A DNA stretch of 64,000 nucleotides from contig CAZKZU010000001.1 in the NCBI GenBank assembly GCA_964557345.1, forward strand, positions 555 to 64,554, given 5' to 3'. Below are positions 22,206-49,915 of the stretch, one piece after another. This DNA comes from an uncultured Methanosarcinales archaeon (lineage in GTDB: Archaea > Nanobdellota > Nanobdellia > Woesearchaeales > DATGWN01). A program made the position numbers and the translations under genes. The notes under the pieces were generated by a model that did no database searches, was not told the origin of the DNA, and worked only from the letters and a program-made list of their open reading frames with translations. Position 1 is the stretch's first letter, and every line of letters begins with the position of its first letter.

Positions 22206-22589
22206 TTAAGTTTTAATATCTACTTTTTCCCAGAATGCAGCATCATTTATGCTTCCATTTAGATACGAGTCAATTGCGTCTTTGTGAACTACTATTTTTG
22301 CAGTTGATTTGCCATCCAGAGTATTAATGATTGTTATTTTAGTATAATTAAAACTTGCAGATGTTGCCATTATAGTTGCCCAATCTGCGATTATTTGAGT
22401 GTCATATTCATTTGCTAAGGCTGCATCATAAGTAATGGTTACGCTGTTAAAAAAAGTGTCTATATCTGATACGTGTAATCCTTGTTCTTTTAATGAAAAT
22501 TCTAGAGAATCTGTAGACATTTTAGAACTGCATCCTGATAGCATAAAAGTTATTATTAATGCTAATGTTATTATTAGTATTTTTTTCAT
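22206..22589 (-). CDS. Small secreted lipoprotein
   Basis: Signal peptide plus lipobox LSGC|SS. Confidence 0.5.
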   Translation of the reverse strand: MKKILIITLALIITFMLSGCSSKMSTDSLEFSLKEQGLHVSDIDTFFNSVTITYDAALANEYDTQIIADWATIMATSASFNYTKITIINTLDGKSTAKIVVHKDAIDSYLNGSINDAAFWEKVDIKT

Positions 22590-22650: not shown

Positions 22651-23934
22651 TTAATATCCGCTAATTCCATCAGTATCACAATGTTCTGGGTCATCTATGC
22701 ATTTGTTTATTGCATGTGTTCTTTGTGCACGTGCGTTTGCTAATTTCATTGCTGCATCGAATGTTTCTTTTGTTACAGTTGAAATTGTACTTCCAAATAC
22801 GGGAACATAACTAGTTGCGTATTCTAATCCTTTACCTAAATAAACTCCGCCTTTAAGGACGTCTGCTTTTCCTTTATCCAATCTTCCTTCAGCAATTAAT
22901 TTATTTATTTTATCTACTTTAGTGTAAACTTCGTTTACTTCATCATAAACTTTTTTGAATTTTTCTATTTTTTCATTTATTGATTTATATTGTTCAGATG
23001 CTTTGTCGTATTTTGCTTTCATTTCTTCAAGTTGATTTAAGTTTTTCTTTAAATCATATCCTGCAGTATTTTTTGCCCATTTCCATCCTTCTTCAGCAAT
23101 TTCTCCTACTTTTTCATCTACTTCTTCTTGAGCATAATCTGTAACGCTTGTTTTCAATTGATCAACTAATGTATTTGCTTTTTCATCTAAGCTTTTTATT
23201 AATTGTTTTTCATCTTTTATTGTTTCAAGTTTAGTCATTAATGTATCTATATTTGCATTTGGATTTTGAACTTTGTATGCGATGTATGCTTTTTTTATGT
23301 CTGAGGAAACATCTTCATCATCTACATCACCAATAACGCTATTTATTCTGTCTCTTGTATATTCGCTTTTTTGTCCAGCTGGTGCAACGCCGAATAGATC
23401 ATCTTTTTTAGTTTGTAATGTTGATAATTCCGCTCTTGTTTTTGAATCAGTTGGATCGCTTGCAAGCTTATCTTTAAGGTCGCTGATTTGGGTGTCCATG
23501 TCTTTTAATGAACTTGATGTAACTCTACTTGATATCGTTGAAGTGCATTTTTGTTGTTCTGCTTGGGATAATTTTGAACATCCTTTTACGTCCATTTTAT
23601 CTGTTGCAATTCCTGAAATACATTCTTCTTTTGTATAAGATCCATATCCGCCTGCTATTTTTGAACAATCAGCATATTTTCCCGTTTCTTGAGCTACCAT
23701 TAAATAACATTTATCTTTTGGCGGATTTGAACCCATTTTTTTATATTCAGGAGGTGCAGTTACTTTTGCACATTTATCTGAATTTCCAGAGCCGACTGCT
23801 GCTTGCTGGTAGCAATGACTTGAGTCAGGATTGATATCGCAAAGTAATTCAGTTAATTCAGGAATTAGATCGCATCCGGGTAGAATTAGTAGTAATGCGA
23901 TTGCAAGGATAAAGATAGCAGATATTTTTTTCAT
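22651..23934 (-). CDS. Secreted lipoprotein with a Cys-rich N-terminal module and long coiled-coil
   Basis: Signal peptide with LPGC lipobox; about 14 Cys in the first 130 residues; K/D/E-rich heptad-like remainder. Confidence 0.45.
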   Translation of the reverse strand: MKKISAIFILAIALLLILPGCDLIPELTELLCDINPDSSHCYQQAAVGSGNSDKCAKVTAPPEYKKMGSNPPKDKCYLMVAQETGKYADCSKIAGGYGSYTKEECISGIATDKMDVKGCSKLSQAEQQKCTSTISSRVTSSSLKDMDTQISDLKDKLASDPTDSKTRAELSTLQTKKDDLFGVAPAGQKSEYTRDRINSVIGDVDDEDVSSDIKKAYIAYKVQNPNANIDTLMTKLETIKDEKQLIKSLDEKANTLVDQLKTSVTDYAQEEVDEKVGEIAEEGWKWAKNTAGYDLKKNLNQLEEMKAKYDKASEQYKSINEKIEKFKKVYDEVNEVYTKVDKINKLIAEGRLDKGKADVLKGGVYLGKGLEYATSYVPVFGSTISTVTKETFDAAMKLANARAQRTHAINKCIDDPEHCDTDGISGY

Positions 23935-24819: not shown

Positions 24820-25533
24820 TTATGGATATTTAATTCCACTTGGAATCATATTTGAAATATCTTGTGCTGCTGCGGGTAATTGAAATACGCTTGAGTCAAC
24901 AGTTCTTAATACCTTTGTTGCAATCATATTTGATTGAGGTGTTGCCATTTCAAGTAAAATCCCGTCATTTGTATAACAAACTTTAGATGTGGACTTATTA
25001 TAATTGACTTCGTATTTATTTCCAGTTTCTCCTGCTTGTGTACAAGTTCCAATAAGTGTTGATATTACTGAACCATCTTTGATTCCACTTTCCATTTGAG
25101 TGTTAGCAGGTTTTGGAACATCCATTTTAAAACAAGTCCAAGATCCAGCCATATTATTACATGAATTAACAGTATTTCCATCAAATATTACTTTAGCATC
25201 TCCTTGGGTAGTTTTTATGATTGTAGCTAATTTAGGAAGATCTAATGCAATTGTCATTGTTTGAACGGGATTTGATCCAGCTGTTAAACTATAATCTACA
25301 GTGTATTTTGGGACAGCAACTGAAAGAATGTCTTTTAAAGATTTTCCTTCAACTTTTGGTGTTGTTGGAGTTTCAGTTTTTGTGGGTTGTTTTTCTGTTT
25401 GTGTTTCAGGCGTTTTTGATGTAACTGAATCAGTGTTTTGTTTTTGTTTCTCTGTATTAACAGTAGAATTTTCTTGTGAGCATCCTGCTAGTATAAGCAG
25501 TAGTGCCAAACATATTATTCCTAATATTTTCAT
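24820..25533 (-). CDS. Secreted lipoprotein with a Thr/Pro-rich linker
   Basis: Signal peptide plus LAGC lipobox, then a TETPTTPK low-complexity linker and a Cys-containing domain. Confidence 0.5.
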   Translation of the reverse strand: MKILGIICLALLLILAGCSQENSTVNTEKQKQNTDSVTSKTPETQTEKQPTKTETPTTPKVEGKSLKDILSVAVPKYTVDYSLTAGSNPVQTMTIALDLPKLATIIKTTQGDAKVIFDGNTVNSCNNMAGSWTCFKMDVPKPANTQMESGIKDGSVISTLIGTCTQAGETGNKYEVNYNKSTSKVCYTNDGILLEMATPQSNMIATKVLRTVDSSVFQLPAAAQDISNMIPSGIKYP

Positions 25534-30186: not shown

Positions 30187-30570
30187 TTATGTTTTTTCTA
30201 TTTTTGTTTTTTCTCTTATTTCTTCTCTAATATTCATTGCTTTCATAAAGCCACAAAGCATTTTTCTTATTTCTATTATATCGATAAGTATTTCATTGCA
30301 CCAGTTTTCATTTAGTAATTTTATGTCTCTAAAATAATTGACCCAGTATTCTGCTTCAGTTATTTCTGCAAGAACTATTCTTATTTTGCATTTAGTATAT
30401 CTATCTGTTCTATACCCTTTCATTTCTGCAAGATTTGCTGGAACAGAAGTTATGCTTCTAAATAGTTGTTCTCTAAAATACAGGTTTTCTATTTTTTGTG
30501 CTTCTGTTGATACTTTAATTGCTAGATCGTATGCTTTTTTGTAAACTAATAGATTGTCGATGTTTGTCAT
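30187..30570 (-). CDS. Four-helix-bundle protein (23S rRNA intervening-sequence protein family, TIGR02436-like)
   Basis: LLVYKKAYDLAIKV....SITSVPANLAE pattern characteristic of this family; 127 aa. Confidence 0.45.
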   Translation of the reverse strand: MTNIDNLLVYKKAYDLAIKVSTEAQKIENLYFREQLFRSITSVPANLAEMKGYRTDRYTKCKIRIVLAEITEAEYWVNYFRDIKLLNENWCNEILIDIIEIRKMLCGFMKAMNIREEIREKTKIEKT

Positions 30571-30751: not shown

Positions 30752-30824
30752 TGGGAACGGTGGGACTTGAACCCACGACTTCAAGAGCTTCAGTCTTGCA
30801 CTCTTCCAGCTGAGTTACGTTCCC
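30752..30824 (-). tRNA. tRNA-Phe (anticodon GAA)
   Basis: The reverse complement GGGAACGTAACTCAGCTGGAAGAGTGCAAGACTGAAGCTCTTGAAGTCGTGGGTTCAAGTCCCACCGTTCCCA folds as a cloverleaf. It has a 7 bp acceptor stem, a CAAGA/TCTTG anticodon stem with loop CTGAAGC, GTGGG/CCCAC T-arm and discriminator A. CCA is not encoded. A TATATAAA box lies ~34 nt upstream on the minus strand. Confidence 0.9.
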
Positions 30825-30986: not shown

Positions 30987-31448
30987 TTAATTTACGTTAA
31001 TTGTGCCGACGTTTTGTTTATTTAGTTTAATTGTTGTAAATCCTTTTGATTTTGGTATTATTGTGATTGATATGTTGCTATTCGGAATTAGTTTACCTTG
31101 GAATTCAGAACCGTATATTGGAATTTCTATTTCTTGCGAGTAGATGTCTTTATTTATTATCATTAGATTTGTAGTTCTGTTGAAAGTTAGGTTTAAGTTT
31201 CTGGGAATAAGTCCTTCTTTGTGAATTGTTAGAGTTTTATTTTCTTCAGGATTAACTATGTTATTATTATTTTCTTGTGAATTTATTTGATTATCTACAT
31301 TAGAGGGGATTATTGTTTTTTCTTCATTATCAAAAATAGGTGTTGTTGTTTGTATTTCTTGATTATTAGAACAGGCGCTAAGGACAAAAAGTGATACAAA
31401 AATTAATATAAAGATTAATTTAAATGAAAAAAAATTGATTGGTTTCAT
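30987..31448 (-). CDS. Small secreted lipoprotein, tandem paralog of 31453..31869
   Basis: Signal peptide plus LSAC lipobox. The C-terminal ...GTINVN matches ...GTVNVK of the neighbouring gene. Confidence 0.45.
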   Translation of the reverse strand: MKPINFFSFKLIFILIFVSLFVLSACSNNQEIQTTTPIFDNEEKTIIPSNVDNQINSQENNNNIVNPEENKTLTIHKEGLIPRNLNLTFNRTTNLMIINKDIYSQEIEIPIYGSEFQGKLIPNSNISITIIPKSKGFTTIKLNKQNVGTINVN

Positions 31449-31452
31449 TTAC

Positions 31453-31869
31453 TTATTTAACATTAACAGTTCCTAATTGAACGCCTGCTAATTCTAGAGG
31501 GTAAATTCCTTTATATTTTGGTGTTGCTGTAATAATTGCGTATCCGCCTGCAACAATGTCTTCTCTTACGTTCATTTGAGGAATTTCTACTCTTTTAGTA
31601 TCGCTTTGGGAATTGTATATAGTAATTGTATTAGCTACTCCTGCTGTCATACTTATTGTACTTGGATTAAATTGACCATCAATAATTTCAATATCCCACG
31701 ATATTGGTTTAGCTGGAGAATTAACAACAGTTGTGTCTTTTGTTTCAATAACTTTTGAAGTGTCTGCTGCTTGAGTAGTGTTGTCGTTATCAGCAGGCTG
31801 TGCTGTGCATGCAACTAATAAAAGAGCTGCAATCATCATTATTATTGTTATTATTTTCATTTTTATCAC
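31453..31869 (-). CDS. Small secreted lipoprotein, tandem paralog of 30987..31448
   Basis: Signal peptide plus LVAC lipobox; shared C-terminal beta-rich domain. Confidence 0.45.
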   Translation of the reverse strand: MIKMKIITIIMMIAALLLVACTAQPADNDNTTQAADTSKVIETKDTTVVNSPAKPISWDIEIIDGQFNPSTISMTAGVANTITIYNSQSDTKRVEIPQMNVREDIVAGGYAIITATPKYKGIYPLELAGVQLGTVNVK

Positions 31870-33322: not shown

Positions 33323-34540
33323 TTACTGGAAATAAGCTGTGTCGTTAAAGACTGGAGCTCGATTCTTATTTTCAATTACAATTGCTATATCTTTGCTTAC
33401 TGAATCTTTACCATCGCTTACAGTTACAATTGTTTTATAATTTCCTGCATCTGTATAAGTTGTTTGGTATGTTGAAGATTTCATAAAGCCGCTATATGTA
33501 ATTTTTAAGCTGTCGCCATCTTTGTCTGAAACTACAGGTTTTATTTCAATTAAATCTCCTTCTGAGACTGTAATTGTGCTTGGTACGTCAATTACTGGTA
33601 GATTGTTTAAAGCCTTAACTGTAACTTTAAATGTTTCTTTGTCTTGTAATTTCCCGTCGGATGCTGTTACATCTATTTCGTAAACTCCTGCGTCTCCTAC
33701 TTTAGTTGTCCATTTTCCATTTGTATCAAGTGGCATGCCATATACTATTGATAATGCATCTCCATCTGGATCTGTTGCGCTTGCAGAAACTTTTACAGTG
33801 TCTTTTTCAGTGACTGTTAAGTCAGAGATAGGAGATAATTTTGGAGCTCTGTTTACGTTGTTGATTGTAATTGAAATTGTTTTTGTGTTTTCAGTTTTAC
33901 CATCTTTAGCTGTTAATGTTACAGTTTTATCTCCTGCATCACTATAAGTTGTTTGGTATTCTGAAGTAGTCATAAATCCTGAATATTTTAAAGTTACTTT
34001 GTCGCCATCTTCATCAGTTACTGTTGGATTGAATGTAATTAAATCTCCTTCATTTACTGTGATGTCTTTAAAGTTTGTAATAACGGGTGCTCTATTTACA
34101 GCGTCGATAATTAATCTGATTTTTTGAGTACTTTCAAGTTGACCATCGGAAGCAGTTACAGAAATAATATATTCTCCAGCATCTCCGATTTTAGTAGTCC
34201 ATTCTCCATTTTTGTCTAACGGAAGTGAAAATGTATATGTTAATTTACTTCCATCAGGGTCATAAGCTAAATCTTTTTTAAATTTTACAACATCGCCTTC
34301 TTTGAAAGTTTTTGTTGGAAGATCTTTGATCGCTATGTTATCTTTGCTGTTATCTACGATTACAGTAGATTTATTTTCTTTTGCTGTAGTGCCTTCAGTT
34401 GTATTGCTTTTTGAATAATTCAAATCAAGCAGTACGGACTTAGTGTCATTTGTATTATTTGCACTAGTTCCGGTTGGTGTTTGGCAACCAGCTAATACTA
34501 GTAGAAATAAGCACAATATTATTGCTAGTACTTTTTTCAT
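33323..34540 (-). CDS. Surface lipoprotein with three or more cadherin-like / putative-Ig (He_PIG-type) repeats
   Basis: LAGC lipobox; repeated ~90 aa modules containing NRAPV...D.DGD.L...Y signatures. Confidence 0.55.
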   Translation of the reverse strand: MKKVLAIILCLFLLVLAGCQTPTGTSANNTNDTKSVLLDLNYSKSNTTEGTTAKENKSTVIVDNSKDNIAIKDLPTKTFKEGDVVKFKKDLAYDPDGSKLTYTFSLPLDKNGEWTTKIGDAGEYIISVTASDGQLESTQKIRLIIDAVNRAPVITNFKDITVNEGDLITFNPTVTDEDGDKVTLKYSGFMTTSEYQTTYSDAGDKTVTLTAKDGKTENTKTISITINNVNRAPKLSPISDLTVTEKDTVKVSASATDPDGDALSIVYGMPLDTNGKWTTKVGDAGVYEIDVTASDGKLQDKETFKVTVKALNNLPVIDVPSTITVSEGDLIEIKPVVSDKDGDSLKITYSGFMKSSTYQTTYTDAGNYKTIVTVSDGKDSVSKDIAIVIENKNRAPVFNDTAYFQ

Positions 34541-34723
34541 AAATTATCACCCTATATTATCTATTATTAAATGGTGACGTATTTAAATAGTTTTTGCTTG
34601 AAAGTGGTAGTTGCAGCAAATTTTGAATTTTTCGTCTAAACGGAGTGATGATTATTTTTTTGTTTTTTAATGATTATTTTTGGTTTTAGAAAAGTTATTA
34701 AGTTTAAGAAATTCTTTTGAGTT

Positions 34724-35062
34724 ATGGATCCTATTTTGATTGCATTTATTTTTGGTATATTATTAAGTGTAATAACTGTTTTTGCTGACGTTTTGATTAA
34801 ACATGCTTCGTTACAGAATGGTTTTTCAGGTTGGTTTACTTTGCTATTAGGAGCAGTTGTGTATGGAATTACTGCACTTGGTTGGTTTTTTTTGATGAGG
34901 AAAGTAAAACTTTCCACACTTGGAGTTTTGTACGCAGTTAGTTGTGTAGTTCTTTTGACTTTATTTAGCGTTTTTTATTTTAAGGAAAAAATAAATGTAT
35001 TTGAGATTGTCGGAATTGTGCTTGCTATAATTTCTTTAATATTATTGTCTAGATTTGCATAA
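34724..35062 (+). CDS. Small four-TM transporter-like protein (SMR/DMT-superfamily-like)
   Basis: 112 aa with four hydrophobic helices; topology resemblance only. Confidence 0.35.
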   Translation: MDPILIAFIFGILLSVITVFADVLIKHASLQNGFSGWFTLLLGAVVYGITALGWFFLMRKVKLSTLGVLYAVSCVVLLTLFSVFYFKEKINVFEIVGIVLAIISLILLSRFA

Positions 35063-35118
35063 AGTAAAACTTTCGTTTAAAAAGTAATCTTATTAAATAG
35101 CAGTATGTTAATATTATT

Positions 35119-36525
35119 ATGGACAGAGATTATATTTTTCATGAGTCAACAGAGAGTATTTGCCCGAAGTGTTTAGCGCGAATACCTGCCAAAATAATCT
35201 ATAAAGATAATAAGGTTTTTCTGAAAAAGTTTTGTAAAGTTCATGGTGAACAATTGGAATTGTATGAAGAAGATATTGAATATTATGAAACCAAAAAAGG
35301 ATTTGATAAGCCAGGTACAATTTCTAAAACGCAAACTAAAATTAATCGCGGATGTCCTTTTGATTGCGGGTTATGTCCTGATCATGATCAGCATACTTGT
35401 ATTGGTCTTATTGAAGTAACCAATAAGTGTAATCTTAATTGTCCAACATGTTATGCAAATAGTGGGAAAGGGAATTTTTTGTCTTTAGATAAATTATCTA
35501 AAATGATGGATTTTTTGATTGAATCAGAAGGTGGGCAGTCAGAAATTTTGCAGATTAGTGGAGGGGAGCCAACTATACATCCTGAAATAATTAAAATTAT
35601 TGAGTTAGCGAGAACTAAAAAAATAAATTACGTTATGCTTAATACTAATGGTGTGCGAATTGCTGAGGATGAGAATTTCGTAAAATCTCTTGGTAAGTTT
35701 AAAGGAAAGTTTGAAGTGTATTTGCAATTTGATGGTTTTTCTCCTAAAGCAAATATTGCACTTCGTGGAAAAGATTTGGTTAAAATTAAATTGAAGGCAA
35801 TCGAAAATTTGCGAAAATATAATATTCCCATAACTCTTGTAACAACAGTTCAAAAGGGTTTGAATGATTCTGAATTAGGGAAAATAATTAAGTTTGGAAT
35901 GGAAACTTCTTGTATTAGAGGAATAAATTTTCAACCGGTTTGTTATTCTGGAAGAGGTTCATTTAAAGACACTAAAAAGACTGAATTAATAAATGATCGA
36001 ATTACGCTTTCTGGCGTTATTAAAAAAATAGAGCAGCAATTGCCAGAAGTATTTGTGAAAGGCGATATTGTACCATTACCTTGTAATGCTGAACGTGTTG
36101 CTGTTACGTATTTGGCAAGATCTGGTGATAATAATGGTAATAATAAAAAAAATAATGATTTTATTCCAATAACAAGAAGTGTTAAAGTTAAAAGTTATCT
36201 TCCCTTAATAGATAATACTTTTGGTTTTGATGCAGATAAGATATTAAAACAAAATGTTAAAAAGGCAATTACTCCTGCGGGTTTTTGTAATTGTATGAGT
36301 TTTATTAAAGATCTTAAAGGCATTATTCCTTTGAGTTATGCATTAAAATCTGATGACGAGAAACTCACTTATTTGAATGAAAATACATTTAGGTTAAGCG
36401 TTACTTCTTTTATTGATGTGTTTAATTTTGATATTAAGTCGATGCAAAAAGAGTGTGTGCATATTATAACTCCTGATTTTAAAAAAATTCCTTTTTCAGC
36501 ATATAATATGTTTTATAGAAAATGA
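35119..36525 (+). CDS. Radical SAM enzyme with N-terminal rubredoxin/Zn-ribbon-like Cys cluster and a second Cys cluster; possible lipid-modifying enzyme (Tes/GDGT-MAS-like, tentative)
   Basis: CPKC..(x)..CKVHG; CPFDCGLCPDHDQHTC; radical SAM Cx3Cx2C in VTNKCNLNCPTCYA; GGEPT motif. Followed by lipid-related genes. Confidence 0.65.
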   Translation: MDRDYIFHESTESICPKCLARIPAKIIYKDNKVFLKKFCKVHGEQLELYEEDIEYYETKKGFDKPGTISKTQTKINRGCPFDCGLCPDHDQHTCIGLIEVTNKCNLNCPTCYANSGKGNFLSLDKLSKMMDFLIESEGGQSEILQISGGEPTIHPEIIKIIELARTKKINYVMLNTNGVRIAEDENFVKSLGKFKGKFEVYLQFDGFSPKANIALRGKDLVKIKLKAIENLRKYNIPITLVTTVQKGLNDSELGKIIKFGMETSCIRGINFQPVCYSGRGSFKDTKKTELINDRITLSGVIKKIEQQLPEVFVKGDIVPLPCNAERVAVTYLARSGDNNGNNKKNNDFIPITRSVKVKSYLPLIDNTFGFDADKILKQNVKKAITPAGFCNCMSFIKDLKGIIPLSYALKSDDEKLTYLNENTFRLSVTSFIDVFNFDIKSMQKECVHIITPDFKKIPFSAYNMFYRK

Positions 36526-36566
36526 TTGTTGTTAGAATTAATTAGGTTACAAAACAGTGGTTTTTA

Positions 36567-37151
36567 TTGACAATGGTAGATTTAATATTAGTAATTGCGG
36601 ATGTTGTAATTGGGCTGTGTCTTTTTGCGTTATTTACTTCTATACTTATTAATTTTGTAGAGTCTAAACATAAAGAAGTGAAAAAAGAAAAAAGAAGTAT
36701 AGTTGAAACGGGATCGATGACTTTATTTTTTATCTTTTTTTATTTATTAATACGATTTAAAATCGGCGCATTTGTCGTAGGGGATTTTGCTAGGGTCAGT
36801 TTGATTATAATAGGCCTAATTATGATAGTATTTGGATGTTTTGTTAACATTTTTGGTAGATTTAATTTAGGCAAAAATTGGGCTAACCAAGTTAAAATAT
36901 ATAAAAACCAAACTCTTGTGAAAGTTGGAGTTTATAGATTTGTAAGGCATCCTTTGTATGCTTCAATTATGTTGATGTTTTATGGTGCGTGTTTAGTGCA
37001 TTTGAATTATTTGGCGTTTTTTTCGAATACATTCATATTTATTCCATTTATGTATTATAGGGCGAAGCAAGAAGAATGGCTATTAAGTAAAACTTTTAAA
37101 GAATATAGTAAATATCAAAAAGAAGTAGGAATGTTTTTTCCAAAGTTGTGA
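36567..37151 (+). CDS. Isoprenylcysteine carboxyl methyltransferase (ICMT) / phospholipid methyltransferase family membrane enzyme
   Basis: VRHPLYAS motif and C-terminal EEWLL..FKEY..Y...V pattern typical of ICMT/PEMT; polytopic. Confidence 0.6.
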   Translation: MTMVDLILVIADVVIGLCLFALFTSILINFVESKHKEVKKEKRSIVETGSMTLFFIFFYLLIRFKIGAFVVGDFARVSLIIIGLIMIVFGCFVNIFGRFNLGKNWANQVKIYKNQTLVKVGVYRFVRHPLYASIMLMFYGACLVHLNYLAFFSNTFIFIPFMYYRAKQEEWLLSKTFKEYSKYQKEVGMFFPKL

Positions 37152-37708
37152 TTGTTATGAAAGCTAAATTAAATACAATGAAAAAAGTAAGTGTGGCTAA
37201 TAAAAAAGTTTTGAAAACTAATAGTTCTGTAAAATTAGAAACTTGTGATAGTTGTAAAACGTGTTCAACTGATTTAGTTGATATTAGAAAAGATGCATTT
37301 GCTTTTTGTCGATATGGAGTTATGGTTCTTGTTTGGATAGCATTTATTTTTAAAATTAAATGGTTGGTTTTATTGGTATTTGGAATTCTTGTGTTGTCGG
37401 CAATTCTTGGTGTGCAATATGCTCCAATGATTCTGTTATATAATTATACTGTTGGTTTATTTTTTAAGTTCAAAACAGAATCGCTTGGAATTAGCGGAAT
37501 GAGGTTTGCTCATACGTTAGGAAGTTTTTTATCTGGACTTGCGGTATTATTCTTATTTTTCTGGAATGTAAAAATTGGTTGGAGTATTACTTTGTTTTTA
37601 GCTATTATGAAGACGATTTCCGCTTTAGGATTATGTCCTGCATATAAATTATATAATTGTATGAAATCTGGTGGCTGTTGTTCTTTTACTAAACGATTGA
37701 GCAAGTGA
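37148..37708 (+). CDS. Membrane protein with Cys-rich termini (CDSCKTC; CPAYKLYNC..GGCC)
   Basis: Hydrophobic helices; overlaps the upstream methyltransferase stop (ATGA-type coupling). Confidence 0.3.
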   Translation: MIVMKAKLNTMKKVSVANKKVLKTNSSVKLETCDSCKTCSTDLVDIRKDAFAFCRYGVMVLVWIAFIFKIKWLVLLVFGILVLSAILGVQYAPMILLYNYTVGLFFKFKTESLGISGMRFAHTLGSFLSGLAVLFLFFWNVKIGWSITLFLAIMKTISALGLCPAYKLYNCMKSGGCCSFTKRLSK

Positions 37709-37754
37709 GTAAATGAATATTTCAGTAAAAATATTATAATAAACGGTAAACAAA

Positions 37755-38507
37755 ATGTTAGATTATCACACAGTTCCATCGGGAGTTTGGGGAATTAGAC
37801 CCGTTTTATTTAGTATTGGAAAATTTGAAGTTAACTCTTATTCTTTTTTTGTCCTTCTTGGGCTTATTGTAGGTCTTGCAGTATATTATTACTTGGCTAG
37901 AACGGAGAAAAAAGTTAATGAGAATTCTTTTTATGTTTTAATGGCGGGACTTTTGGGTGGCGTTATTGGCGCTAAGCTACCAATGTGGATTATTAATTAT
38001 CGTTTGATAATTGAAAGTTTTCCCGATATTACTCCTCTACTTTCAGGTAGAACTATTACAGGGGGACTTATTGGTGGAACTCTTGCCGTTATGTATGTTA
38101 AATACAAGTTGAAAATTAAAGATAAGAAAGGAAATTTATTTGCACCAGCTATTGCAATTGGTGTTGCTATTGGTAGAATTGGTTGTTTATTTAAAGGATG
38201 TTGTTATGGAATTGCAACAAGTTTACCTTGGGGTGTTGATTTTGGTGATGGAATACCTAGGCATCCAACTCAGATATATGAAATAATTTTTTTCCTTTTG
38301 ATGTTTGTGTTTTTGATGGTGAAGCGCGAAACTGCAAAACCAGGTCAGTTATTTTATTGGCTTATGAATAGTTATTTCATATTTAGATTTGTTGAAGAGT
38401 TTATTCGAGAAGAGCCAACTTTGTTTTTAGGTTTGACTATATTTCAATATATTTCAATTGTTGCACTAATTTTTATCAACGCAAAGTATTTAAATGAGAA
38501 GAAGTAG
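37755..38507 (+). CDS. lgt: Prolipoprotein diacylglyceryl transferase homolog
   Basis: Lgt signature GRIGCLFKGCCYG (G.R.GNF.NGE-like) and HPTQIYE. Polytopic, 250 aa. Confidence 0.65.
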   Translation: MLDYHTVPSGVWGIRPVLFSIGKFEVNSYSFFVLLGLIVGLAVYYYLARTEKKVNENSFYVLMAGLLGGVIGAKLPMWIINYRLIIESFPDITPLLSGRTITGGLIGGTLAVMYVKYKLKIKDKKGNLFAPAIAIGVAIGRIGCLFKGCCYGIATSLPWGVDFGDGIPRHPTQIYEIIFFLLMFVFLMVKRETAKPGQLFYWLMNSYFIFRFVEEFIREEPTLFLGLTIFQYISIVALIFINAKYLNEKK

Positions 38508-38516
38508 GTAAATGGT

Positions 38517-38885
38517 ATGGCGAATGTTAAAGTAACTAAGATGTCTAAAACTGAAAATAATTTTTCTAAAGTCGAAAAAGATTATTATGATACTACTAGT
38601 AAGAAAGTTGTTGATTTCTCAAAAGGCTTTTTTTTAAATATTGTAATTGGAGTTGTTGTTACAGTAATCAATTTCTATACTGGAGCGGCTATATTTGATA
38701 GTTCTCCGACGATAATAACTAGGCTAATTGGTATTGCAGTTCCTTTAACTGTAATTCCTTTGGAGATCTTTCTGATTAGACATTTTTTCAAACAGAAAAG
38801 ATTTATTGCAATTGGTATGTTGTCTTCTTTAATATTGCCATTGTTAGTTACTGGAACTTGTTCTTTTATGTTTTTAACGGCTTGA
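38517..38885 (+). CDS. Small membrane protein (tandem paralog 1)
   Basis: MANVKVTKMSK...DYYDTTSKK N-terminus followed by three TM helices. Paralog of 38936..39292. Confidence 0.35.
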   Translation: MANVKVTKMSKTENNFSKVEKDYYDTTSKKVVDFSKGFFLNIVIGVVVTVINFYTGAAIFDSSPTIITRLIGIAVPLTVIPLEIFLIRHFFKQKRFIAIGMLSSLILPLLVTGTCSFMFLTA

Positions 38886-38935
38886 TTAGTAAATTAGCTA
38901 AAAACATTTAAATTAGAGAGTAAATCATATTTACT

Positions 38936-39292
38936 ATGGCAAATGCAAAATTATCTAAAAAAGTAAAAATTGAAAAAGATTATTATCAATCAACTGCTAG
39001 TAAAGCAACTGATTTTGTAATAGGGTTTTTTGGTGTTTGGGTAGTTAATGCGTTAATTGGTTATGGGTCTTATTTAATGTTTGCTAGACTTATTAATTGG
39101 TCTGCTAATTATACTTTGATTTATTCCTTGACTACTATTTTTTATTTAGTAATACTTGGTTTAAATATTGCAGTAATAATTTTATCTTTTAAACGAAATA
39201 GGCGATATATTGGAATAGGAATTTTGTGTTCTGCGGTTTTACTTCCATTACTTGCTTTTGGAGCATGTATAGTTGCTCTTAGTGGTTTATAA
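38936..39292 (+). CDS. Small membrane protein (tandem paralog 2)
   Basis: MANAKLSKKVKIEKDYYQSTASKATDF followed by TM helices. Paralog of 38517..38885. Confidence 0.35.
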   Translation: MANAKLSKKVKIEKDYYQSTASKATDFVIGFFGVWVVNALIGYGSYLMFARLINWSANYTLIYSLTTIFYLVILGLNIAVIILSFKRNRRYIGIGILCSAVLLPLLAFGACIVALSGL

Positions 39293-39365
39293 AATAATTA
39301 TAGCTCTCATTATTTTTAGGATTATTTAAAATAATTCTTTAATTTATTAATTAAATTATAAATTT

Positions 39366-40022
39366 TTATTTTTCATTAATGTTGTGCGGGTTTTCTAGTC
39401 CTATTAATTCACAGATTCCAAAATAAATTAGTCCTAACGCAAAATATGAGATTTGCATCCATATTGGTGCATGAATACAATTAAAAAATGGAATTCCGTT
39501 GTAAATAGCAGCAGATGCATTTTGAATGTTGAATACGTGGTATGCGATAGTTTCAATTGATATGAGAAGTGGCCAGTATATAGCGATGAATAAAAGCATT
39601 TTTTTCGCGTAACTTTTTGAGTTTATTTTGTGTTCAAGGTGTGAATATAATATGTACGTTAAAAATAATCCTGTTGCCCAGGCGAAAAGAGGGTAAATAG
39701 TTATTCCGAAAATAGTGAGCATTTCTTTGTTATAACCATATTGATTGTGTGCGAAAATCATCCATATTAGTGCAACTCCTGATGATACAAAAAGGTGATA
39801 AATTAATCTTTTTCTCGATGTTAAATATAAATATGGAAATAATAGAATATATGCTCCAATCATAACTAAATCTGGGCGAAATATAGCTAATAGGAAGAAA
39901 ATTAATAGAGTGATAATTTTGTCAAAAAAAAACATTTGTTTTTTCCAATTACGAGATTTTGTTTTAGTTTTAATATTCTGTTTATGCAAGAATATACTAT
40001 TTATGTATTTTGTTAAATTCAT
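39366..40022 (-). CDS. Polytopic integral membrane protein of unknown function
   Basis: Six or seven hydrophobic helices with no catalytic motif. Checked for the prepilin-peptidase GxGD motif; not found. Confidence 0.3.
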   Translation of the reverse strand: MNLTKYINSIFLHKQNIKTKTKSRNWKKQMFFFDKIITLLIFFLLAIFRPDLVMIGAYILLFPYLYLTSRKRLIYHLFVSSGVALIWMIFAHNQYGYNKEMLTIFGITIYPLFAWATGLFLTYILYSHLEHKINSKSYAKKMLLFIAIYWPLLISIETIAYHVFNIQNASAAIYNGIPFFNCIHAPIWMQISYFALGLIYFGICELIGLENPHNINEK

Positions 40023-45857: not shown

Positions 45858-46820
45858 ATGAGAAGAAGTATTTTAAGATTGATTTTGATTGTTGTGGTAG
45901 TATTTTCTTTATTGTTCATGTCTGGATGCGGATCTAGCGGTAATACAATTAATTACATTTCTGATAATCAATTTAGAACTGGTACTAATGGAGTTACTAT
46001 GGAATTTGTGCAAAATTCTCCTCCTGAATCGATGATTGAAGATGCTGAAGTTTCTGTTGGAGTTAAATTACATAATGATGGCGCTTATAATGTTCAAAAT
46101 GGGTATTTAGTTGTTAGTTATGATAAGGATTATTTGACTTTATTTAATACGGGACAAAAGTCCTTTAATTTAGAAGGGAAAAATAAATATAATAAAGCTG
46201 GTGAAGAAAAGAGTATTTTTTTTGATGGTAAAACTTCTGTGTTAGAAGTTGAAAGCCAAAGACATGATGTTCCAATTGTAGCATCTATATGTTATCAATA
46301 TAATGCAACTTTATTAGATTTACTTTGCTTTGATACTCCTGATTTGCCGAATAAAGAAAAGGGTAAAACTATTTGTTCCTATAAGTCCGATTATTCTTAT
46401 AGTGGCCAAGGGGCTCCAGTTTCGATTTCTAACGTTAAATTAACTTTATCCTATTCTGAGGTTACTCAAAAATTTAAACCCATTATTGACTTTGAAATAA
46501 GTCATACTGCAAGTGGTTTTAGTAGTGATAAAGGCTTGGTTGTTAATTATGATAATTATAGATCAGCATGTACTAGTTCTGGATCGTCATCTTTTGATAA
46601 TTTGAATTTAGTTAAATTTGAGGCATCAATATCTGATGAAATTTTATCTTGTAATAAAGAAGAAGGGACAGTTACTCTTAGAGATGGAAAAGCAAATGTT
46701 AGATGCACTGGAAATTATATTGAGGCAGGATATTTGCCTTATCAAGCTCCATTAAAGATAGATTTACTTTATGGTTATATGACTACTACATCTACGACAA
46801 TGCAAGTAATTCGAAGTTAA
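45858..46820 (+). CDS. Secreted lipoprotein
   Basis: Signal peptide plus lipobox MSGC|GSS; Cys-containing beta-rich protein, 320 aa. Confidence 0.45.
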   Translation: MRRSILRLILIVVVVFSLLFMSGCGSSGNTINYISDNQFRTGTNGVTMEFVQNSPPESMIEDAEVSVGVKLHNDGAYNVQNGYLVVSYDKDYLTLFNTGQKSFNLEGKNKYNKAGEEKSIFFDGKTSVLEVESQRHDVPIVASICYQYNATLLDLLCFDTPDLPNKEKGKTICSYKSDYSYSGQGAPVSISNVKLTLSYSEVTQKFKPIIDFEISHTASGFSSDKGLVVNYDNYRSACTSSGSSSFDNLNLVKFEASISDEILSCNKEEGTVTLRDGKANVRCTGNYIEAGYLPYQAPLKIDLLYGYMTTTSTTMQVIRS

Positions 46821-46895: not shown

Positions 46896-47687
46896 TTAGA
46901 TTAGTTCAAATACGTAGTTTTTAACATACAAACTATTAGTAGTTGTAGAATATGTCACTATTTGGTTTGTATCGATTTTATAGATTTCTTTATTTGTTAA
47001 TTTTACGCACGTATCTTCTGTTTTTGTTACTTTACATCTAACAAAGAAGTCTTTAGCTTGATAGATAGTTGATATGTCTGTAAAAAAATCCGATTTAGCT
47101 GTAAAGTGTGGCCAGTAATAATAGTAGCTATGATCATTATTGGTTGCCATTCTTTTTATTCTTTCGCTATGTTTTGCAATGCCGTATACATTTTCATCTT
47201 TTTCAATTAGTGTGTAATTATTAGGGGAAATAGCGTTTATTGTTTTGTCTTCTTCTTTGTTATCCATTATAATTGAGTTGTATAATTTTATTTTGTTAGG
47301 TAGTTCTAAGTTGGTTTGATTTTCCATCCACTCCAATGCATATTTAGATAAATCTAATTGATAAGTTGAATTTTGGAGAATAATTTTCCCGTCTTGTTTT
47401 GGTAGATTTTTAATGGCATAGTCTTCGAAGATTTTGCTTTTTTCATCAATTATCTTTTGTGACGCAGTTTCAATGAAGAACCTTTGTTTGTAGCTTTCTT
47501 GCTTCATTTCTGTAATTTTAGCTGCGTCTATACCAACATAAGTAGTTGAGGATATTTGTGTTGCAATTCCACTAATTGCTATGTATAAAACGAAAATAAC
47601 GAATACCATTAATAGACTTACAATTAGGACTGATGCTTTTTTTCCAGCTTTATGTATTGAACTTTTTGTATTGTTTTTTGTTGTCAT
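46896..47687 (-). CDS. Pilin-like protein (class III signal peptide)
   Basis: Signal HKAGKKA|SVLIVSLLMVFVIFVLYIAI; last gene of the minus-strand pilin-like cluster. Confidence 0.4.
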   Translation of the reverse strand: MTTKNNTKSSIHKAGKKASVLIVSLLMVFVIFVLYIAISGIATQISSTTYVGIDAAKITEMKQESYKQRFFIETASQKIIDEKSKIFEDYAIKNLPKQDGKIILQNSTYQLDLSKYALEWMENQTNLELPNKIKLYNSIIMDNKEEDKTINAISPNNYTLIEKDENVYGIAKHSERIKRMATNNDHSYYYYWPHFTAKSDFFTDISTIYQAKDFFVRCKVTKTEDTCVKLTNKEIYKIDTNQIVTYSTTTNSLYVKNYVFELI

Positions 47688-47691
47688 TTTT

Positions 47692-48189
47692 TTATTTATC
47701 GGTTTTATCTAAAAACATTAGGTATGCTCCTCTATTTTGATAGTTAACCATTAATTCAGCAGAGTATGGATTAACTATTACTATTGAAGGTATTTCTATA
47801 GCACTTTTTCTATATGGCAATATTAAATATGACTTTTTGAAAGGCATTTTATCATTAAAATTTTCATTGGTTACTATGTCCCCTTTAAACGTTACATATT
47901 CTTTTTCAGCAAAAATATTATTGCTATCATCATAATTTTTTAGTTCAATGGTGATTGGAGTATACTCATCGTAAAGAGATCTATTCATCTTTATTAGCAT
48001 TGGAATAAATGAATCTACAATGTCGTTATTGTGAGAATCTGTTATTTTTTTGTTTTTCATTTCTTCTAGTTTAGAACTTAAGAGCCAAAAACCTACTATT
48101 AGTGCTACAAGTATGATTACTCCGATTATTACATCAGTCGCAAGATCTGCTTGTGCTTTTTTTGTATTCCTTATGGTTATTGGTCTCAT
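47692..48189 (-). CDS. Pilin-like protein (class III signal peptide)
   Basis: Signal TKKA|QADLATDVIIGVIILVALIVGF. Confidence 0.4.
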   Translation of the reverse strand: MRPITIRNTKKAQADLATDVIIGVIILVALIVGFWLLSSKLEEMKNKKITDSHNNDIVDSFIPMLIKMNRSLYDEYTPITIELKNYDDSNNIFAEKEYVTFKGDIVTNENFNDKMPFKKSYLILPYRKSAIEIPSIVIVNPYSAELMVNYQNRGAYLMFLDKTDK

Positions 48190-48300
48190 GTTTTTTAGTT
48201 ATTATTTTTCTAGTTTTTTCTTTTATGTTTTTAGTTATTTTATTGTTTGTTCTAGTATTTTTTAGTGTTATTTATTGCACTCTTATTATTATTCTTATCA

Positions 48301-48792
48301 TCATATTTTCCAAAATGATATATTTATCTTTCCGGCTTTGTATCCGTTAGTATCTTTGATTAAAATAGGATAAACTTTACTAAAATCAGGCCTGTCGATA
48401 TAATTTATTGTTTTTAATGATCCATTTACCTCGTTGTTTTTATCGTAAACAGTCAGTTTTACTCCTTTATTTTCTTCCTCAGAATAAAGTCCCATGCAAT
48501 TACTAAAAGTTACGTTATTAGTTAGTTTTGATTCGTCTATTACTTTACTATATTTTATTCCTGTGAATGGATCAATGTAATTGATACAATTGAAAGCTCT
48601 TTCTTCAAAGTTAAGAACGTTTGTTCCGTATGTGTTTTTGTAATATTTGTCGTTAATGCCTGTTGCAAGGATCATTAAGAATATGAATAGAACTATAATT
48701 ATAATTATTGCAATTATATAATAACCCATTTTATTTCCTAAATCAAATGATTCAGATTGGGCCTTCTTATTTAATTTCTTGAATGGTTTCAT
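48301..48792 (-). CDS. Pilin-like protein (class III signal peptide)
   Basis: Signal NKKA|QSESFDLGNKMGYYIIAIIIIIVLFIF. Confidence 0.35.
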   Translation of the reverse strand: MKPFKKLNKKAQSESFDLGNKMGYYIIAIIIIIVLFIFLMILATGINDKYYKNTYGTNVLNFEERAFNCINYIDPFTGIKYSKVIDESKLTNNVTFSNCMGLYSEEENKGVKLTVYDKNNEVNGSLKTINYIDRPDFSKVYPILIKDTNGYKAGKINISFWKI

Positions 48793-48805
48793 TTTTTAGT
48801 TTAAT

Positions 48806-49840
48806 TTAAGGTTTATTTACGCTTGCAATTTCAGTTCCTGCGCCATTTTCTAGTATAGGGACTATTTTGATGCTATTAATAACTATATTATTGTCAGTGT
48901 ATTTTGTTTCATCTTTTACATACGGAGAATAGTATCTAACTTCGTACCATTGCTCAGGATAAAGTTCTTTTAATTGAGGCCCACTACTTGGAATCATCCT
49001 ATCGTAAAAAGAATTAATTGCATCATATCCCGCTCCTGCAACCATTATGGCTATCGCAGCCCAGCCAAATGGAGTTGATCCTAAAAAAAAGGCCACAGGT
49101 AGCATTATTAGAGGCATGTTTTTCATTGCATTTCCGATATTAGATGATTGTTCATTCCATGCAATTGTCTCATCAACTTTTTCAATAAATTCAATGTAGC
49201 CATTTCCTTCGTAGAATACATATCCTGCATATGAGAGATAGTTTTTATCTCCAGCTCCATATTTTTTAATTGATTCTTCAAAAGTTGTATCTATTTTTTT
49301 TCCTTTAGTATTATAGTTCCAAAGAGAATATTTGTTATTGACGTCTAATAATTCTGATGTTGATATTTTTGCATTTTTATCATCTAAATGTAGTTTGAAT
49401 TTATAGCACGAAAAATAGTAATTTCCGTCTTCTCTCCACCCAATCCAATTAGTAGTGCCTTGCCCGAAAGTGTTAAGTATTTTTCCTTCTCCAAATGTGC
49501 TCCAGCAACTATCGATCATATTTCCCATTTCAATTGTAACTTTTTCTTTTAATTTATCCCCGCTGTATTTTGTTAAGTTTATTTCTTTTGTTTGCGTTAT
49601 GCACATAGGGTGTTTCATAGCTCCTTTCGCTACGGCATCTAGTCCCCATATATCTTTTTGAAGTATCGATCTAGAGACTTGTAATTCTTCTTTACAGATC
49701 ATATTTTGCGTTTTTGGTTCAAGACTTAAATAGAATTTGCTGACTATTGCAATTGCAAGTATTGCGAATATGATAACTAAGAGGATTTGCATTATTGCAG
49801 TCATTTCTCCTTTTTTGTTTTTTTGGATTATTTTGGCCAT
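48806..49840 (-). CDS. Pilin-like protein with a large C-terminal domain; paralog of 52853..53803
   Basis: Signal NKKG|EMTAIMQILLVIIFAIL. The C-terminal YEVRYYSPYVKDETKY..N.IK.VP..E.GAG is shared with 52853..53803. Confidence 0.45.
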   Translation of the reverse strand: MAKIIQKNKKGEMTAIMQILLVIIFAILAIAIVSKFYLSLEPKTQNMICKEELQVSRSILQKDIWGLDAVAKGAMKHPMCITQTKEINLTKYSGDKLKEKVTIEMGNMIDSCWSTFGEGKILNTFGQGTTNWIGWREDGNYYFSCYKFKLHLDDKNAKISTSELLDVNNKYSLWNYNTKGKKIDTTFEESIKKYGAGDKNYLSYAGYVFYEGNGYIEFIEKVDETIAWNEQSSNIGNAMKNMPLIMLPVAFFLGSTPFGWAAIAIMVAGAGYDAINSFYDRMIPSSGPQLKELYPEQWYEVRYYSPYVKDETKYTDNNIVINSIKIVPILENGAGTEIASVNKP

Positions 49841-49915
49841 TTGATTTTATTATTTTGTTTTATTATTATTTTTTCTTTATAGTTTAGTTCTTAGTATTTT
49901 CATATTTTTCGTCCT

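Follow-up and report, generated by a model that had tools for sequence, protein, structure and literature searches.

A six-gene locus in a Woesearchaeales contig

We analysed a stretch of 64,000 nucleotides (the window) from contig CAZKZU010000001.1 (positions 555 to 64,554, forward strand) of assembly GCA_964557345.1, which is labelled an uncultured Methanosarcinales archaeon and placed by GTDB in the Woesearchaeales. The subject is a run of six genes that begins with one for a 468-residue radical S-adenosylmethionine (SAM) protein of the superfamily of Tes, or GDGT-MAS (GDGT, glycerol dialkyl glycerol tetraether), and includes a homologue of the lipoprotein diacylglyceryl transferase Lgt and two small membrane proteins. 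The features of this locus are as follows.

35119..36525, +: radical SAM protein of the Tes/GDGT-MAS superfamily, 468 residues, placed there by its Pfam domains, its match to 7TOL and its AlphaFold2 model; it scores below the Tes and TrsS cut-offs and is a member of an unnamed Lgt-coupled subfamily ('clade A')
35161..35244, +: rubredoxin-like site C15-X2-C18-X20-C39-X2-H42 (C15PKC18...C39KVH42), spaced as in MJ0619
35353..35400, +: N-terminal auxiliary [4Fe-4S] motif C79-X3-C83-X2-C86 with H89, H92 and C94 (C79PFDC83GLC86PDHDQH92TC94), aligned with C73/C77/C80 of MJ0619
35428..35451, +: radical SAM motif C104-X3-C108-X2-C111 (C104NLNC108PTC111), invariant and aligned with C98/C102/C105 of MJ0619
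36073..36462, +: C-terminal domain with the subfamily-specific C322, C390, C392 and C446, from a column comparison of clades A and B, Tes and TrsS
36567..37151, +: membrane methyltransferase of the ICMT/PEMT family, 194 residues (above the Pfam cut-offs, with 47.8 bits for ICMT and 40.7 bits for PEMT)
37148..37708, +: DUF4395 membrane protein, 186 residues (Pfam DUF4395 40.9 bits), with an N-terminal CxxCxxC and a Cys-rich C-terminus (GLCP..C....GGCC)
37755..38507, +: Lgt-family protein, 250 residues (Pfam LGT 138 bits), with the signature G140-R-I-G-C144-L-F-K-G-C149-C150-Y-G152 (nucleotides 38172-38210)
38517..38885, +: small three-helix membrane protein, 122 residues, its translation ending ...KQKR-FIAIGMLSSLILPLLVTG-T-C115-SFMFLTA; called by NCBI and JGI; candidate acceptor
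38936..39292, +: second, paralogous small membrane protein, 118 residues, its translation ending ...KRNRR-YIGIGILCSAVLLPLLAFG-A-C111-IVALSGL

The six genes (radical SAM, ICMT-like, DUF4395, Lgt-like and the two small proteins) are co-directional, with gaps of 41, -4, 46, 9 and 50 bp, and a convergent gene follows the second small-protein gene after 39292. Because this convergent gene ends the co-directional run, we take the unit to consist of six genes. A promoter and terminator scan of 34500-39600 returned no more sites than in shuffled sequences and is of a kind unsuited to archaeal promoters, so that the operon ends are set by gene orientation alone. An Rfam scan of the window found one tRNA and nothing else relevant.

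A first-pass annotation of the window, made from the sequence alone, had pointed out the motifs CPKC..C.VHG, CPFDCGLCPDH..HTC and CNLNCPTC in the 468-residue open reading frame (ORF), with ICMT/PEMT-family and Lgt genes after it. All three motifs are present, in a protein with the Pfam domains Zn_ribbon_HMPTM (residues 7-50, 60 bits) and Radical_SAM (residues 98-259, 86.7 bits against a cut-off of 29.5), and Pfam identifies both neighbours, ICMT/PEMT at 36567-37151 and LGT at 37755-38507. The DUF4395 gene, the two small membrane-protein genes and the four conserved C-terminal cysteines (C322, C390, C392 and C446) had escaped that annotation.

The radical SAM protein has the Tes fold and a different C-terminal cysteine set

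We compared the radical SAM protein with proteins of known structure. In a HMMER search of the PDB, residues 8-467 aligned to residues 22-497 of 7TOL, the GDGT-MAS MJ0619, with E=7.6e-83, and this was the only strong match. An AlphaFold2 model built from 52 homologues (mean pLDDT 85.9, pTM 0.88) gave a Foldseek TM score of 0.82 to the GDGT-MAS structure 7TOM; the runner-up fold scored 0.38 and covered the radical SAM core alone. The likeness to the Tes/GDGT-MAS proteins (MJ0619, 7TOL/7TOM; MA_1486 and Maeo_0574) extends over the full length of a common four-domain fold, at 33-34% identity.

The GDGT-MAS structure paper describes a rubredoxin-type site (C9X2C12X20C33X2H36), an N-terminal [4Fe-4S] cluster on C73/C77/C80 and a His, the radical SAM motif CX3CX2C, and a C-terminal [4Fe-4S] cluster that has Met439 as its labile ligand and whose sulfide captures the lipid radical. 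The first three of these sites have counterparts, residue by residue, in the window protein, where their motifs are invariant in the 52 aligned homologues, H42 included; their cysteines, among them C15, C18 and C39 of the rubredoxin-like site, are invariant in every clade compared (A, B, Tes and TrsS). Since the motifs are invariant in homologues and aligned with the GDGT-MAS metal ligands, they do not arise by chance. The 468-residue protein belongs to the Tes/GDGT-MAS fold family, within which it falls in a separate, unnamed subfamily.

On the curated NCBIfam models the protein scored 325 bits against the cut-off of 450 for Tes (NF045702) and, over its full length, 343.8 bits against 490 for the radical SAM (seleno)protein TrsS (NF045646), its top curated model by score. 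Representatives used as controls passed these cut-offs, P0210 with 610 bits on Tes and P0192 with 595 bits on TrsS. A neighbour-joining tree of 179 full-length sequences (461 trimmed columns, no support values) placed MJ0619, P0210 and P0192 in one half, and the window protein, its relatives and several other unassigned groups in the other.

The C-terminal domain is where the window protein and Tes part. C338, C455 and C470 (MJ0619 numbering) are invariant in the Tes and TrsS sets, and M439 is present in 10 of 11 Tes and all nine TrsS sequences. At the positions of C338, C455, C470 and M439 the window protein has R326, E445, S460 and T429, and these positions are replaced across clades A and B, the two groups of relatives described below. 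Invariant in both clades are C322, C446, a CxC pair (C390/C392 in clade A, which includes the window) and C94; the four C-terminal cysteines are also invariant within the 52 homologues, and C94 is shared with TrsS and is Ile or Val in Tes. Conservation suggests that C338, C455 and C470 are actual cluster ligands in Tes, the structure paper naming Met439 alone. Because the Tes-type positions are replaced while other cysteines are invariant, the catalytic auxiliary site has evidently been rebuilt in the window subfamily.

The radical SAM gene is coupled to an Lgt-like gene in bacteria and DPANN archaea

Homologues of the radical SAM protein number in the thousands. Those at 54-75% identity are about 455 residues long, and their source names include Woesearchaeota, Nanoarchaeota, Ignavibacteria, Mangrovibacterium, Clostridia, Deltaproteobacteria, Elusimicrobia and candidate phyla radiation (CPR) bacteria. 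For the analysis of gene context, a scan of one genome per species yielded 580 relatives, of which the best 80 were kept; ORFs were called in the loci, and neighbours were searched for with hidden Markov models, for which the window and two bacterial loci supplied the sequences.

An LGT-family gene is adjacent to and co-directional with the radical SAM gene in 74 of 82 loci; of the eight exceptions, six lie on contigs that are cut at the gene. The loci with an adjacent LGT gene span DPANN, Bacteroidota, Bacillota, Actinomycetota, Cyanobacteriota, Planctomycetota, Pseudomonadota and Chloroflexota. When all neighbours were clustered, the radical SAM and Lgt-like genes alone were conserved across the whole set of loci. 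Two database proteins, P0137 (733 residues) and P0215 (671 residues), are fusions in the order LGT, Zn-ribbon, Radical_SAM.

Two arrangements occur. Clade A comprises 11 loci including the window, at 50-56% identity to the window protein (63% for one bacterial locus), with the order radical SAM, ICMT-like, DUF4395, Lgt-like; its members are Woesearchaeota, Bacteroidales, Lentimicrobium, Clostridia and an actinobacterium. In the 63 loci of clade B, at 38-44% identity to the window protein, the Lgt-like gene usually lies immediately 5' of the radical SAM gene on the same strand, and the ICMT-like and DUF4395 genes are missing. Clade B members are Pedobacter, Hymenobacter, Flavobacterium, Chitinophaga, Aquimarina, Paenibacillus, Brevibacillus, Neobacillus, Nostocales, Planctomycetota, Alpha-, Beta- and Gammaproteobacteria and Ktedonosporobacter. 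The relatives are mainly bacterial and include aerobic Bacteroidota, Bacillota and cyanobacteria. A cultured bacterium, Chondrinema litorale, carries the three-gene clade-B form on a RefSeq plasmid, annotated as 'prolipoprotein diacylglyceryl transferase family protein', 'radical SAM protein' and 'hypothetical protein'. The DPANN contigs L087, L088 and L089 repeat the gene order of the window as far as they reach.

The window holds the full, extended form of the cassette, found in anaerobes, CPR bacteria and DPANN archaea, to which the ICMT-like and DUF4395 genes are added. The ICMT-like gene is present in 11 of 11 clade-A loci. In the window, the top PDB match of its product is the Methanosarcina acetivorans isoprenylcysteine methyltransferase (ICMT) 4A2N (E=1.1e-10), with the RHPxYA motif aligned (RHPLYAS). 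It scored 73 bits against the cut-off of 160 on the NCBIfam isoprenylcysteine methyltransferase model NF040696, and there were weaker NCBIfam matches to the thiol S-methyltransferase MddA and the lipid A phosphate methyltransferase LmtA. The DUF4395 gene lies between the methyltransferase and Lgt-like genes in every clade-A locus; a sequence search of the PDB gave no relative of its product, a literature search gave no characterised one, and beyond DUF4395 itself the Pfam and NCBIfam scans yielded no family or mere noise.

Some loci have further neighbours. After an LGT-radical SAM fusion at L171, positions 4686-6065 encode a 459-residue protein in which a rhodanese domain at the N-terminus is combined with many transmembrane helices, which hints at sulfur transfer in some versions of the system. 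On a Mycolicibacterium vanbaalenii plasmid (NZ_CP126902.1, L173), a homologue of 36% identity lies in a thiol-related context, beside a methyltransferase, a CcdA-type thiol-disulfide transporter and a protein disulfide oxidoreductase.

As a negative control we examined 80 metagenomic TrsS loci (L090-L169), and none carried an LGT, ICMT or DUF4395 gene. The conserved neighbours of TrsS are a phenylacetate-CoA-ligase-like protein, a class I methyltransferase, a C_GCAxxG_C_C protein, a 764-residue FeS/CCG-type protein, a molybdopterin (molybdenum) oxidoreductase and an XdhC-like protein, a gene cluster that suggests a cofactor- or small-molecule-related role and not a membrane-lipid one. In the literature searched, TrsS is listed only as a selenoprotein family. 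Other members of the superfamily (P0213, P0262, P0269, P0180, P0270, P0170 and P0247) are fused to a MobA-like NTP transferase (with or without HD), a class I methyltransferase, DUF5714 or an AMP-binding domain. The Tes/TrsS fold has been recruited to several quite different pathways.

The Lgt-like partner keeps some active-site residues of Lgt and has lost others

The partner protein scored under the cut-offs of all NCBIfam Lgt models. We compared it with Escherichia coli Lgt (5AZB) position by position in 74 sequences. R141 and R211 of the window protein correspond to R143 and R239 of E. coli Lgt and are conserved, with G154 and Y235, in 74 of 74 partners; E243 is Glu or Asp in 73 of 74, and the R, P and E of the PRHP(S/T)Q(L/I)YE motif are kept in 98-100%. 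Elsewhere the partners have changed. N146 is Cys in 73 of 74, H103 is V, T, M or L and never conserved, E151 is Cys in clade A (GRIGCxxxGCCYG) and aliphatic in clade B, and about 27 residues of the periplasmic head domain are missing. Where Lgt has the signature G142-RLGNFINGELW-G154 and H103-GGL, the window protein has GRIGCLFKGCCYG and TGGL.

According to the Lgt structure paper (PMC4728403), R143 and R239 are central to substrate binding and catalysis, H103 is proposed to bind the lipobox peptide, substitution of H103 or E151 inactivates E. coli Lgt, and the active site opens to the periplasm. The residue pattern, read with these roles, therefore defines the partner as a subfamily of its own, derived from Lgt. 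Binding of a glycerophospholipid has probably been kept, while the chemistry or the acceptor has changed.

Clear Pfam LGT-family proteins thus occur in DPANN/Woesearchaeota contigs, at 37755-38507 of the window and at loci L008, L088 and L089. This contrasts with a 2025 archaeal lipoprotein study, in which it is stated that no archaeal Lgt homologues are known.

Small membrane proteins with a lipobox-like cysteine follow the cassette

The small proteins of both clades have 55-130 residues and a common C-terminal design, in which a basic patch is followed by about 17 hydrophobic residues, G-x-C and a mostly hydrophobic tail of 3-15 residues. Those of the window end in ...KQKRFIAIGMLSSLILPLLVTGTCSFMFLTA and ...KRNRRYIGIGILCSAVLLPLLAFGACIVALSGL, and examples from bacteria end in ...KERRYIGIGLIVGIVFPLLVVGTCSPIIFM (Mangrovibacterium), ...LLIISIVMLVIGVGACAAILSGL (Pedobacter) and ...KVLFIIAGIYFVIGAGVCGSFF (Chondrinema). 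Scans against Pfam and NCBIfam assigned them to no family. The register of the G-x-C element, with G at -2 and A, T, I, G or S at -1, differs from that of the canonical lipobox, [ASTVI][GAS]C. The layout of a classical lipoprotein precursor, an N-terminal signal and lipobox [LVI][ASTVI][GAS]C with the mature protein after it, is not that of these proteins, whose element is C-terminal except in a minority of loci.

We counted the motif under a fixed definition, which took in ORFs within 2 kb 3' of the cassette on the same strand. It was present in 59 of 80 loci (93 ORFs), against a background of 27 of 6655 (0.4%) among the other small ORFs of the same loci. The corresponding counts were 1 of 73 loci 3' of TrsS, 2 of 68 loci 5' of the cassette on the same strand and 1 of 82 loci 3' of the cassette on the opposite strand. 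Most motif ORFs begin between -7 and +20 bp from the end of the cassette, and tandem motif ORFs, in two to four copies, occur in 25 of 80 loci. Such proteins are also encoded in other DPANN loci and on the Chondrinema plasmid.

A separate feature of the set is that 15 of 77 clade-B small proteins, mostly from relatives of Pedobacter and Hymenobacter, end in a C-terminal His (for example ...CAVILSNLNIGH and ...CALMLSNMGGMH).

In summary, the window protein very probably represents a distinct Lgt-coupled subfamily with its own dedicated Cys-motif proteins, and is not a tetraether synthase.

A possible protein-lipidation system

What the cassette does can be proposed only tentatively. The reading that we favour, although we give it slightly less than an even chance, is that the package would couple Lgt-like lipidation of the small-protein cysteine to radical chemistry on lipid tails, as a membrane system rather than a tetraether synthase. 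By the positive-inside rule, the basic patch of the small proteins would be cytoplasmic, so that the conserved Cys would lie at the outer face of the membrane, where the pocket of Lgt opens. The Lgt-like protein would bind a membrane glycerolipid through its two retained arginines and move the lipid moiety to this Cys.

The C-terminus of E. coli Lgt is cytoplasmic in its seven-helix topology. The radical SAM domain, attached to the corresponding end of the Lgt-like protein, would likewise be cytoplasmic, and a lipid that this protein holds or has just transferred would have its tails pointing towards the domain. The radical SAM enzyme would then cleave SAM and abstract a hydrogen from the end of a lipid tail, and its re-wired C-terminal iron-sulfur cluster could serve to form a new bond, C-C or C-S. 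The small protein would thereby gain a lipid anchor that is cross-linked, macrocyclic or membrane-spanning. Where the cassette has its extended form, the ICMT-like enzyme might methylate a group on the lipid product at the cytoplasmic face, and in a DPANN host the system would work on scavenged membrane lipids. A bolder version of the proposal would have this as an undescribed post-translational lipidation system, widespread in bacteria and passed to DPANN archaea, in which an Lgt derivative with an active-site cysteine joins a membrane lipid to a cysteine close to the C-terminus of the dedicated small proteins and a docked or fused Tes-derived enzyme then couples or functionalises the tail ends, to give a macrocyclic or membrane-spanning anchor bound to protein; that version is possible, if on balance somewhat doubtful.

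Several points weigh against these proposals. All functional statements made here are drawn from sequence and gene context. The placement of the Cys outside and the radical SAM domain inside is a prediction with two grounds, the positive-inside rule and the order of domains in the fusions, and the role proposed for the ICMT-like enzyme is a guess. As H103 and E151 are absent from the Lgt-like protein, ordinary diacylglyceryl transfer is not assured. TrsS stands in a non-membrane, cofactor-like context, and the fold is therefore not limited to lipid substrates. The distance tree is a sketch. At L057 and L080 there is no Lgt-like gene within 10 kb. Finally, 21 of 80 loci fail the strict motif definition. 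Most of these are variants in which the transmembrane G-x-C element is N-terminal or the small gene lies between the two enzymes: at the woesearchaeal locus L008 two small genes with an N-terminal element (MEAKKVILILLTIFIVGPLVFIGTC...) alternate with those of the cassette, several proteobacterial and planctomycete loci have similar variants, and in Ktedonosporobacter the small gene lies between the Lgt-like and radical SAM genes.

A lipid-related role had been put forward in the first-pass annotation. It is reasonable, because the genes beside that of the radical SAM protein encode membrane enzymes with a part in lipid or lipoprotein chemistry. The same annotation regarded lipid or isoprenoid modification as unexpected in a lipid scavenger, an argument that loses force because an Lgt-type transferase and a tail-modifying enzyme would use existing membrane lipids and need no de novo lipid synthesis.

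Alternative explanations

We regard it as unlikely, though deserving of attention, that the pathway makes a lipid only. The Lgt-like and radical SAM proteins would then remodel a glycerolipid, by tail-to-tail coupling or by insertion of sulfur at a tail end and S- or O-methylation by the ICMT-like enzyme, with the small proteins in an accessory, scaffolding or regulatory part. Tes chemistry passes through a carbon-sulfur bond to the cluster sulfide, and the ICMT family includes MddA and LmtA, both among the NCBIfam matches of the window methyltransferase. The loss from the Lgt-like protein of H103, the proposed binder of the lipobox peptide, would also fit, as would the rhodanese membrane protein after one fusion locus and the Cys-rich character of the DUF4395 and Lgt-like proteins. 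The small proteins fit less well. Their sole invariant is a lipobox-like Cys after a signal-peptide-like helix, as in an Lgt-type acceptor, and tandem copies with variable tails resemble substrates, not subunits.

The same tandem paralogues, with an invariant Cys and hypervariable tails of 3-15 residues directly after it, could be seen as precursors of a peptide made by the ribosome and modified after translation (RiPP), with a membrane 'leader' and a Cys 'core'. Such peptides are commonly matured by radical SAM enzymes, and the core domain of the window protein has weak NCBIfam similarity to SPASM maturases. The radical SAM enzyme would act on the peptide, for example to form a thioether, and the Lgt-like protein would process or export it, perhaps freeing a short lipopeptide. 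We judge this improbable: there is no SPASM domain or RiPP recognition element (RRE) domain, the whole-protein fold matches GDGT-MAS alone, the Cys is predicted to lie outside the membrane and the radical SAM domain in the cytoplasm, and variants with an N-terminal motif and a full helix after it misfit a leader-core layout.

It is very improbable that the protein is a true tetraether or macrocyclic-archaeol synthase (Tes) acting on scavenged archaeol, its neighbours being unrelated housekeeping genes for lipids and lipoproteins. The first-pass annotation had likened the protein to Tes/GDGT-MAS, with a radical SAM protein of an unrelated family, such as a peptide maturase, as the contrary outcome. 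The likeness holds at the level of the superfamily, in full-length homology, in fold identity with GDGT-MAS and in three of four metal sites; GDGT-MAS/Tes is the only characterised close relative, the best homologues do not lie in an unrelated radical SAM family, and DPANN proteins of this sort were included among the Tes homologues by Zeng et al. (2022). It does not extend to orthology with Tes. Coupling of GDGT or isoprenoid chains on archaeol is unlikely because the protein falls below the Tes cut-off, other residues stand at the conserved positions of the catalytic C-terminal cluster, most of the clade is bacterial, and synteny or fusion with an Lgt-like gene persists across phyla, together with the linkage to small proteins. 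Moreover, relatives of 55-63% identity occur in bacteria with ester lipids and relatives of about 40% in strict aerobes, and no archaeal lipid genes lie nearby in the window.

Bacterial hosts should carry a housekeeping Lgt for lipoprotein biogenesis. That the window gene is such a general Lgt, serving the lipobox proteins of a DPANN cell next to a radical SAM gene of no significance, is scarcely credible, since gene order, altered active site and dedicated small proteins are identical in kind in bacteria, fusion proteins exist and canonical Lgt is inactivated by H103 and E151 substitutions, even though the window has at least seven ORFs with a classical N-terminal signal and lipobox and the 2025 study predicts DPANN archaea to be rich in lipoproteins.

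Host, origin and surroundings of the cassette

Zeng et al. (2022) suspected host contamination of DPANN bins as the source of DPANN 'Tes homologues'. We rejected this for the window: its G+C content is 29-31% throughout and does not shift around the operon (about 0.29-0.31), the same contig encodes Pelota, a Trm5/Taw2-type methyltransferase and many pilin-like proteins that have class III signals, all of them archaeal markers, and the cassette recurs in other Woesearchaeota contigs. The gene content of the window fits an anaerobic DPANN archaeon. In the protein collection the contig measures 89.7 kb. In the tree, the nearest neighbour of the window protein is a bacterial locus that carries mfd. 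Transfer between domains is the simplest reading of the cassette's distribution, and the archaeon probably acquired it from bacteria.

The at least seven ORFs with a classical lipobox lie at 30987-31448(-), 31453-31869(-), 33323-34540(-), 22206-22589(-), 22651-23934(-), 24820-25533(-) and 45858-46820(+), and the lipobox sequences are ...VLSAC, ...LLVAC, ...VLAGC, ...MLSGC, ...ILPGC, ...ILAGC and ...FMSGC. Three of these ORFs lie just 5' of the operon, among them 33323-34540(-), a surface protein with PKD/Big_9 repeats. Given their number, many ordinary lipoproteins are predicted in the genome.

On the other side of the operon, 46896-53803(-) and 53947-54207(-) encode a series of small proteins whose N-termini resemble archaeal class III (pilin-type) signals, and 58537-61371(+) encodes a 944-residue surface protein with Gly_rich_2 and Laminin_G_3 domains; this is probably a pilus or adhesion locus. 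The segments 1925-5345(+) and 5342-10870(-) encode the anaerobic ribonucleotide reductase NrdD, which has an ATP-cone, the radical SAM activase of this enzyme and, beside them, a type III restriction-modification pair made up of a ResIII helicase and an N6_N4 DNA methylase. A 127-residue ORF at 30187-30570(-) (...SVPANLAE...) lies about 180 bp from the sole tRNA gene of the window, at 30752-30824(-). Its sequence is reminiscent of the 'four-helix bundle' proteins that are sometimes found in intervening sequences of 23S rRNA.

Relation to earlier work

Literature searches, full-text searches included, gave no description of a system that combines Lgt, a radical SAM enzyme and a lipobox, nor did searches by diacylglyceryl transferase with tetraether, DUF4395, TrsS or Lgt paralogues. 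NCBI annotates the cassette proteins with generic names only, and a 2026 review of lipid-modifying radical SAM enzymes includes neither Lgt nor lipoproteins and treats the bacterial Tes homologues as uncharacterised. The system is undescribed in the literature searched.

This bears on how Tes homologues are used. Zeng et al. (2022) proposed bacterial Tes homologues as makers of branched GDGTs (brGDGTs), and Tes homologues are counted in metagenomes to assign the sources of lipid biomarkers used in paleoclimate work. A large and coherent part of the bacterial and DPANN homologues has a different C-terminal Cys set and is tied to Lgt-like and small Cys-motif proteins. With this divergent Lgt-linked subfamily among the homologues, the usual thresholds (E<1e-50, >20-30% identity) are therefore an unsafe marker for tetraethers. 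If the lipidation reading is true, much of the set of 'Tes homologues' from bacteria and DPANN archaea that serves for GDGT or brGDGT markers would be unrelated to tetraether synthesis.

The three-gene system is present in cultured bacteria (Pedobacter, Flavobacterium, Paenibacillus, Mangrovibacterium and, on a plasmid, Chondrinema), where it could reveal a new linkage of lipid to protein or a new tail chemistry. A cassette shared between domains and acting on membrane lipids would also bear on how lipid-scavenging symbionts shape their envelope.

Comparison with known systems

Mss, the membrane-spanning lipid synthase of Thermotoga and Thermoanaerobacter, likewise belongs to the radical SAM enzymes and joins the lipid tails of bacteria; homologues have been reported in Woesearchaeota. 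We rejected an identification of the window protein with Mss, whose relation to Tes is only remote according to its source paper; it has no reported link to Lgt, and we set it apart by that paper's description.

In the haloarchaeon Haloferax, AliA and AliB are proposed to lipidate the lipobox Cys of archaeal lipoproteins, and AliA shares two conserved arginines with Lgt. Its similarity to Lgt is marginal (HHpred probability 29%), whereas the window protein is clearly of the bacterial Pfam LGT type and its cassette is shared with bacteria.

The small proteins also recall CaaX processing, in which a Cys is S-lipidated, the tail removed and the end methylated by ICMT (for example M. acetivorans ICMT, 4A2N): their Cys lies a few residues from the C-terminus, and an ICMT-family gene is part of the window operon. 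The differences are several. The tail has 3-15 hydrophobic residues and is not aaX, the cassette holds no CaaX protease, and the predicted place of the Cys is outside the membrane, while the SAM that ICMT uses is cytoplasmic. Moreover, the larger clade B lacks the methyltransferase, and that of the window falls below the NCBIfam isoprenylcysteine methyltransferase cut-off.

Among relatives of the radical SAM protein, TrsS has C94 in common with it and differs in retaining the C338/C455/C470/M439 set of Tes. Tes/GDGT-MAS shares three metal sites with the window protein, which is probably also peripheral to the membrane and would act on lipid tails. Tes differs in its C-terminal set, to which the window subfamily opposes its own invariant cysteines and the extra C94, and the window protein's clade is mostly bacterial. 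An Lgt-like partner and small Cys-motif proteins characterize the window subfamily and have not been reported for bona fide Tes loci.

The bacterial Lgt pathway offers the closest parallel for the other half of the cassette. The partner is a member of Pfam LGT with the equivalents of R143, R239, E243, Y235, G154 and the PRHP motif of E. coli Lgt, and the candidate acceptors present a basic patch, a hydrophobic helix, small residues and a Cys, as in a lipoprotein signal peptide. Compared with lipoprotein precursors, the acceptor motif is usually at the C-terminus of a small polytopic protein that ends 3-15 residues past the Cys. The cassette further differs from the bacterial pathway in that the transferase is coupled, and in some proteins fused, to a radical SAM enzyme.

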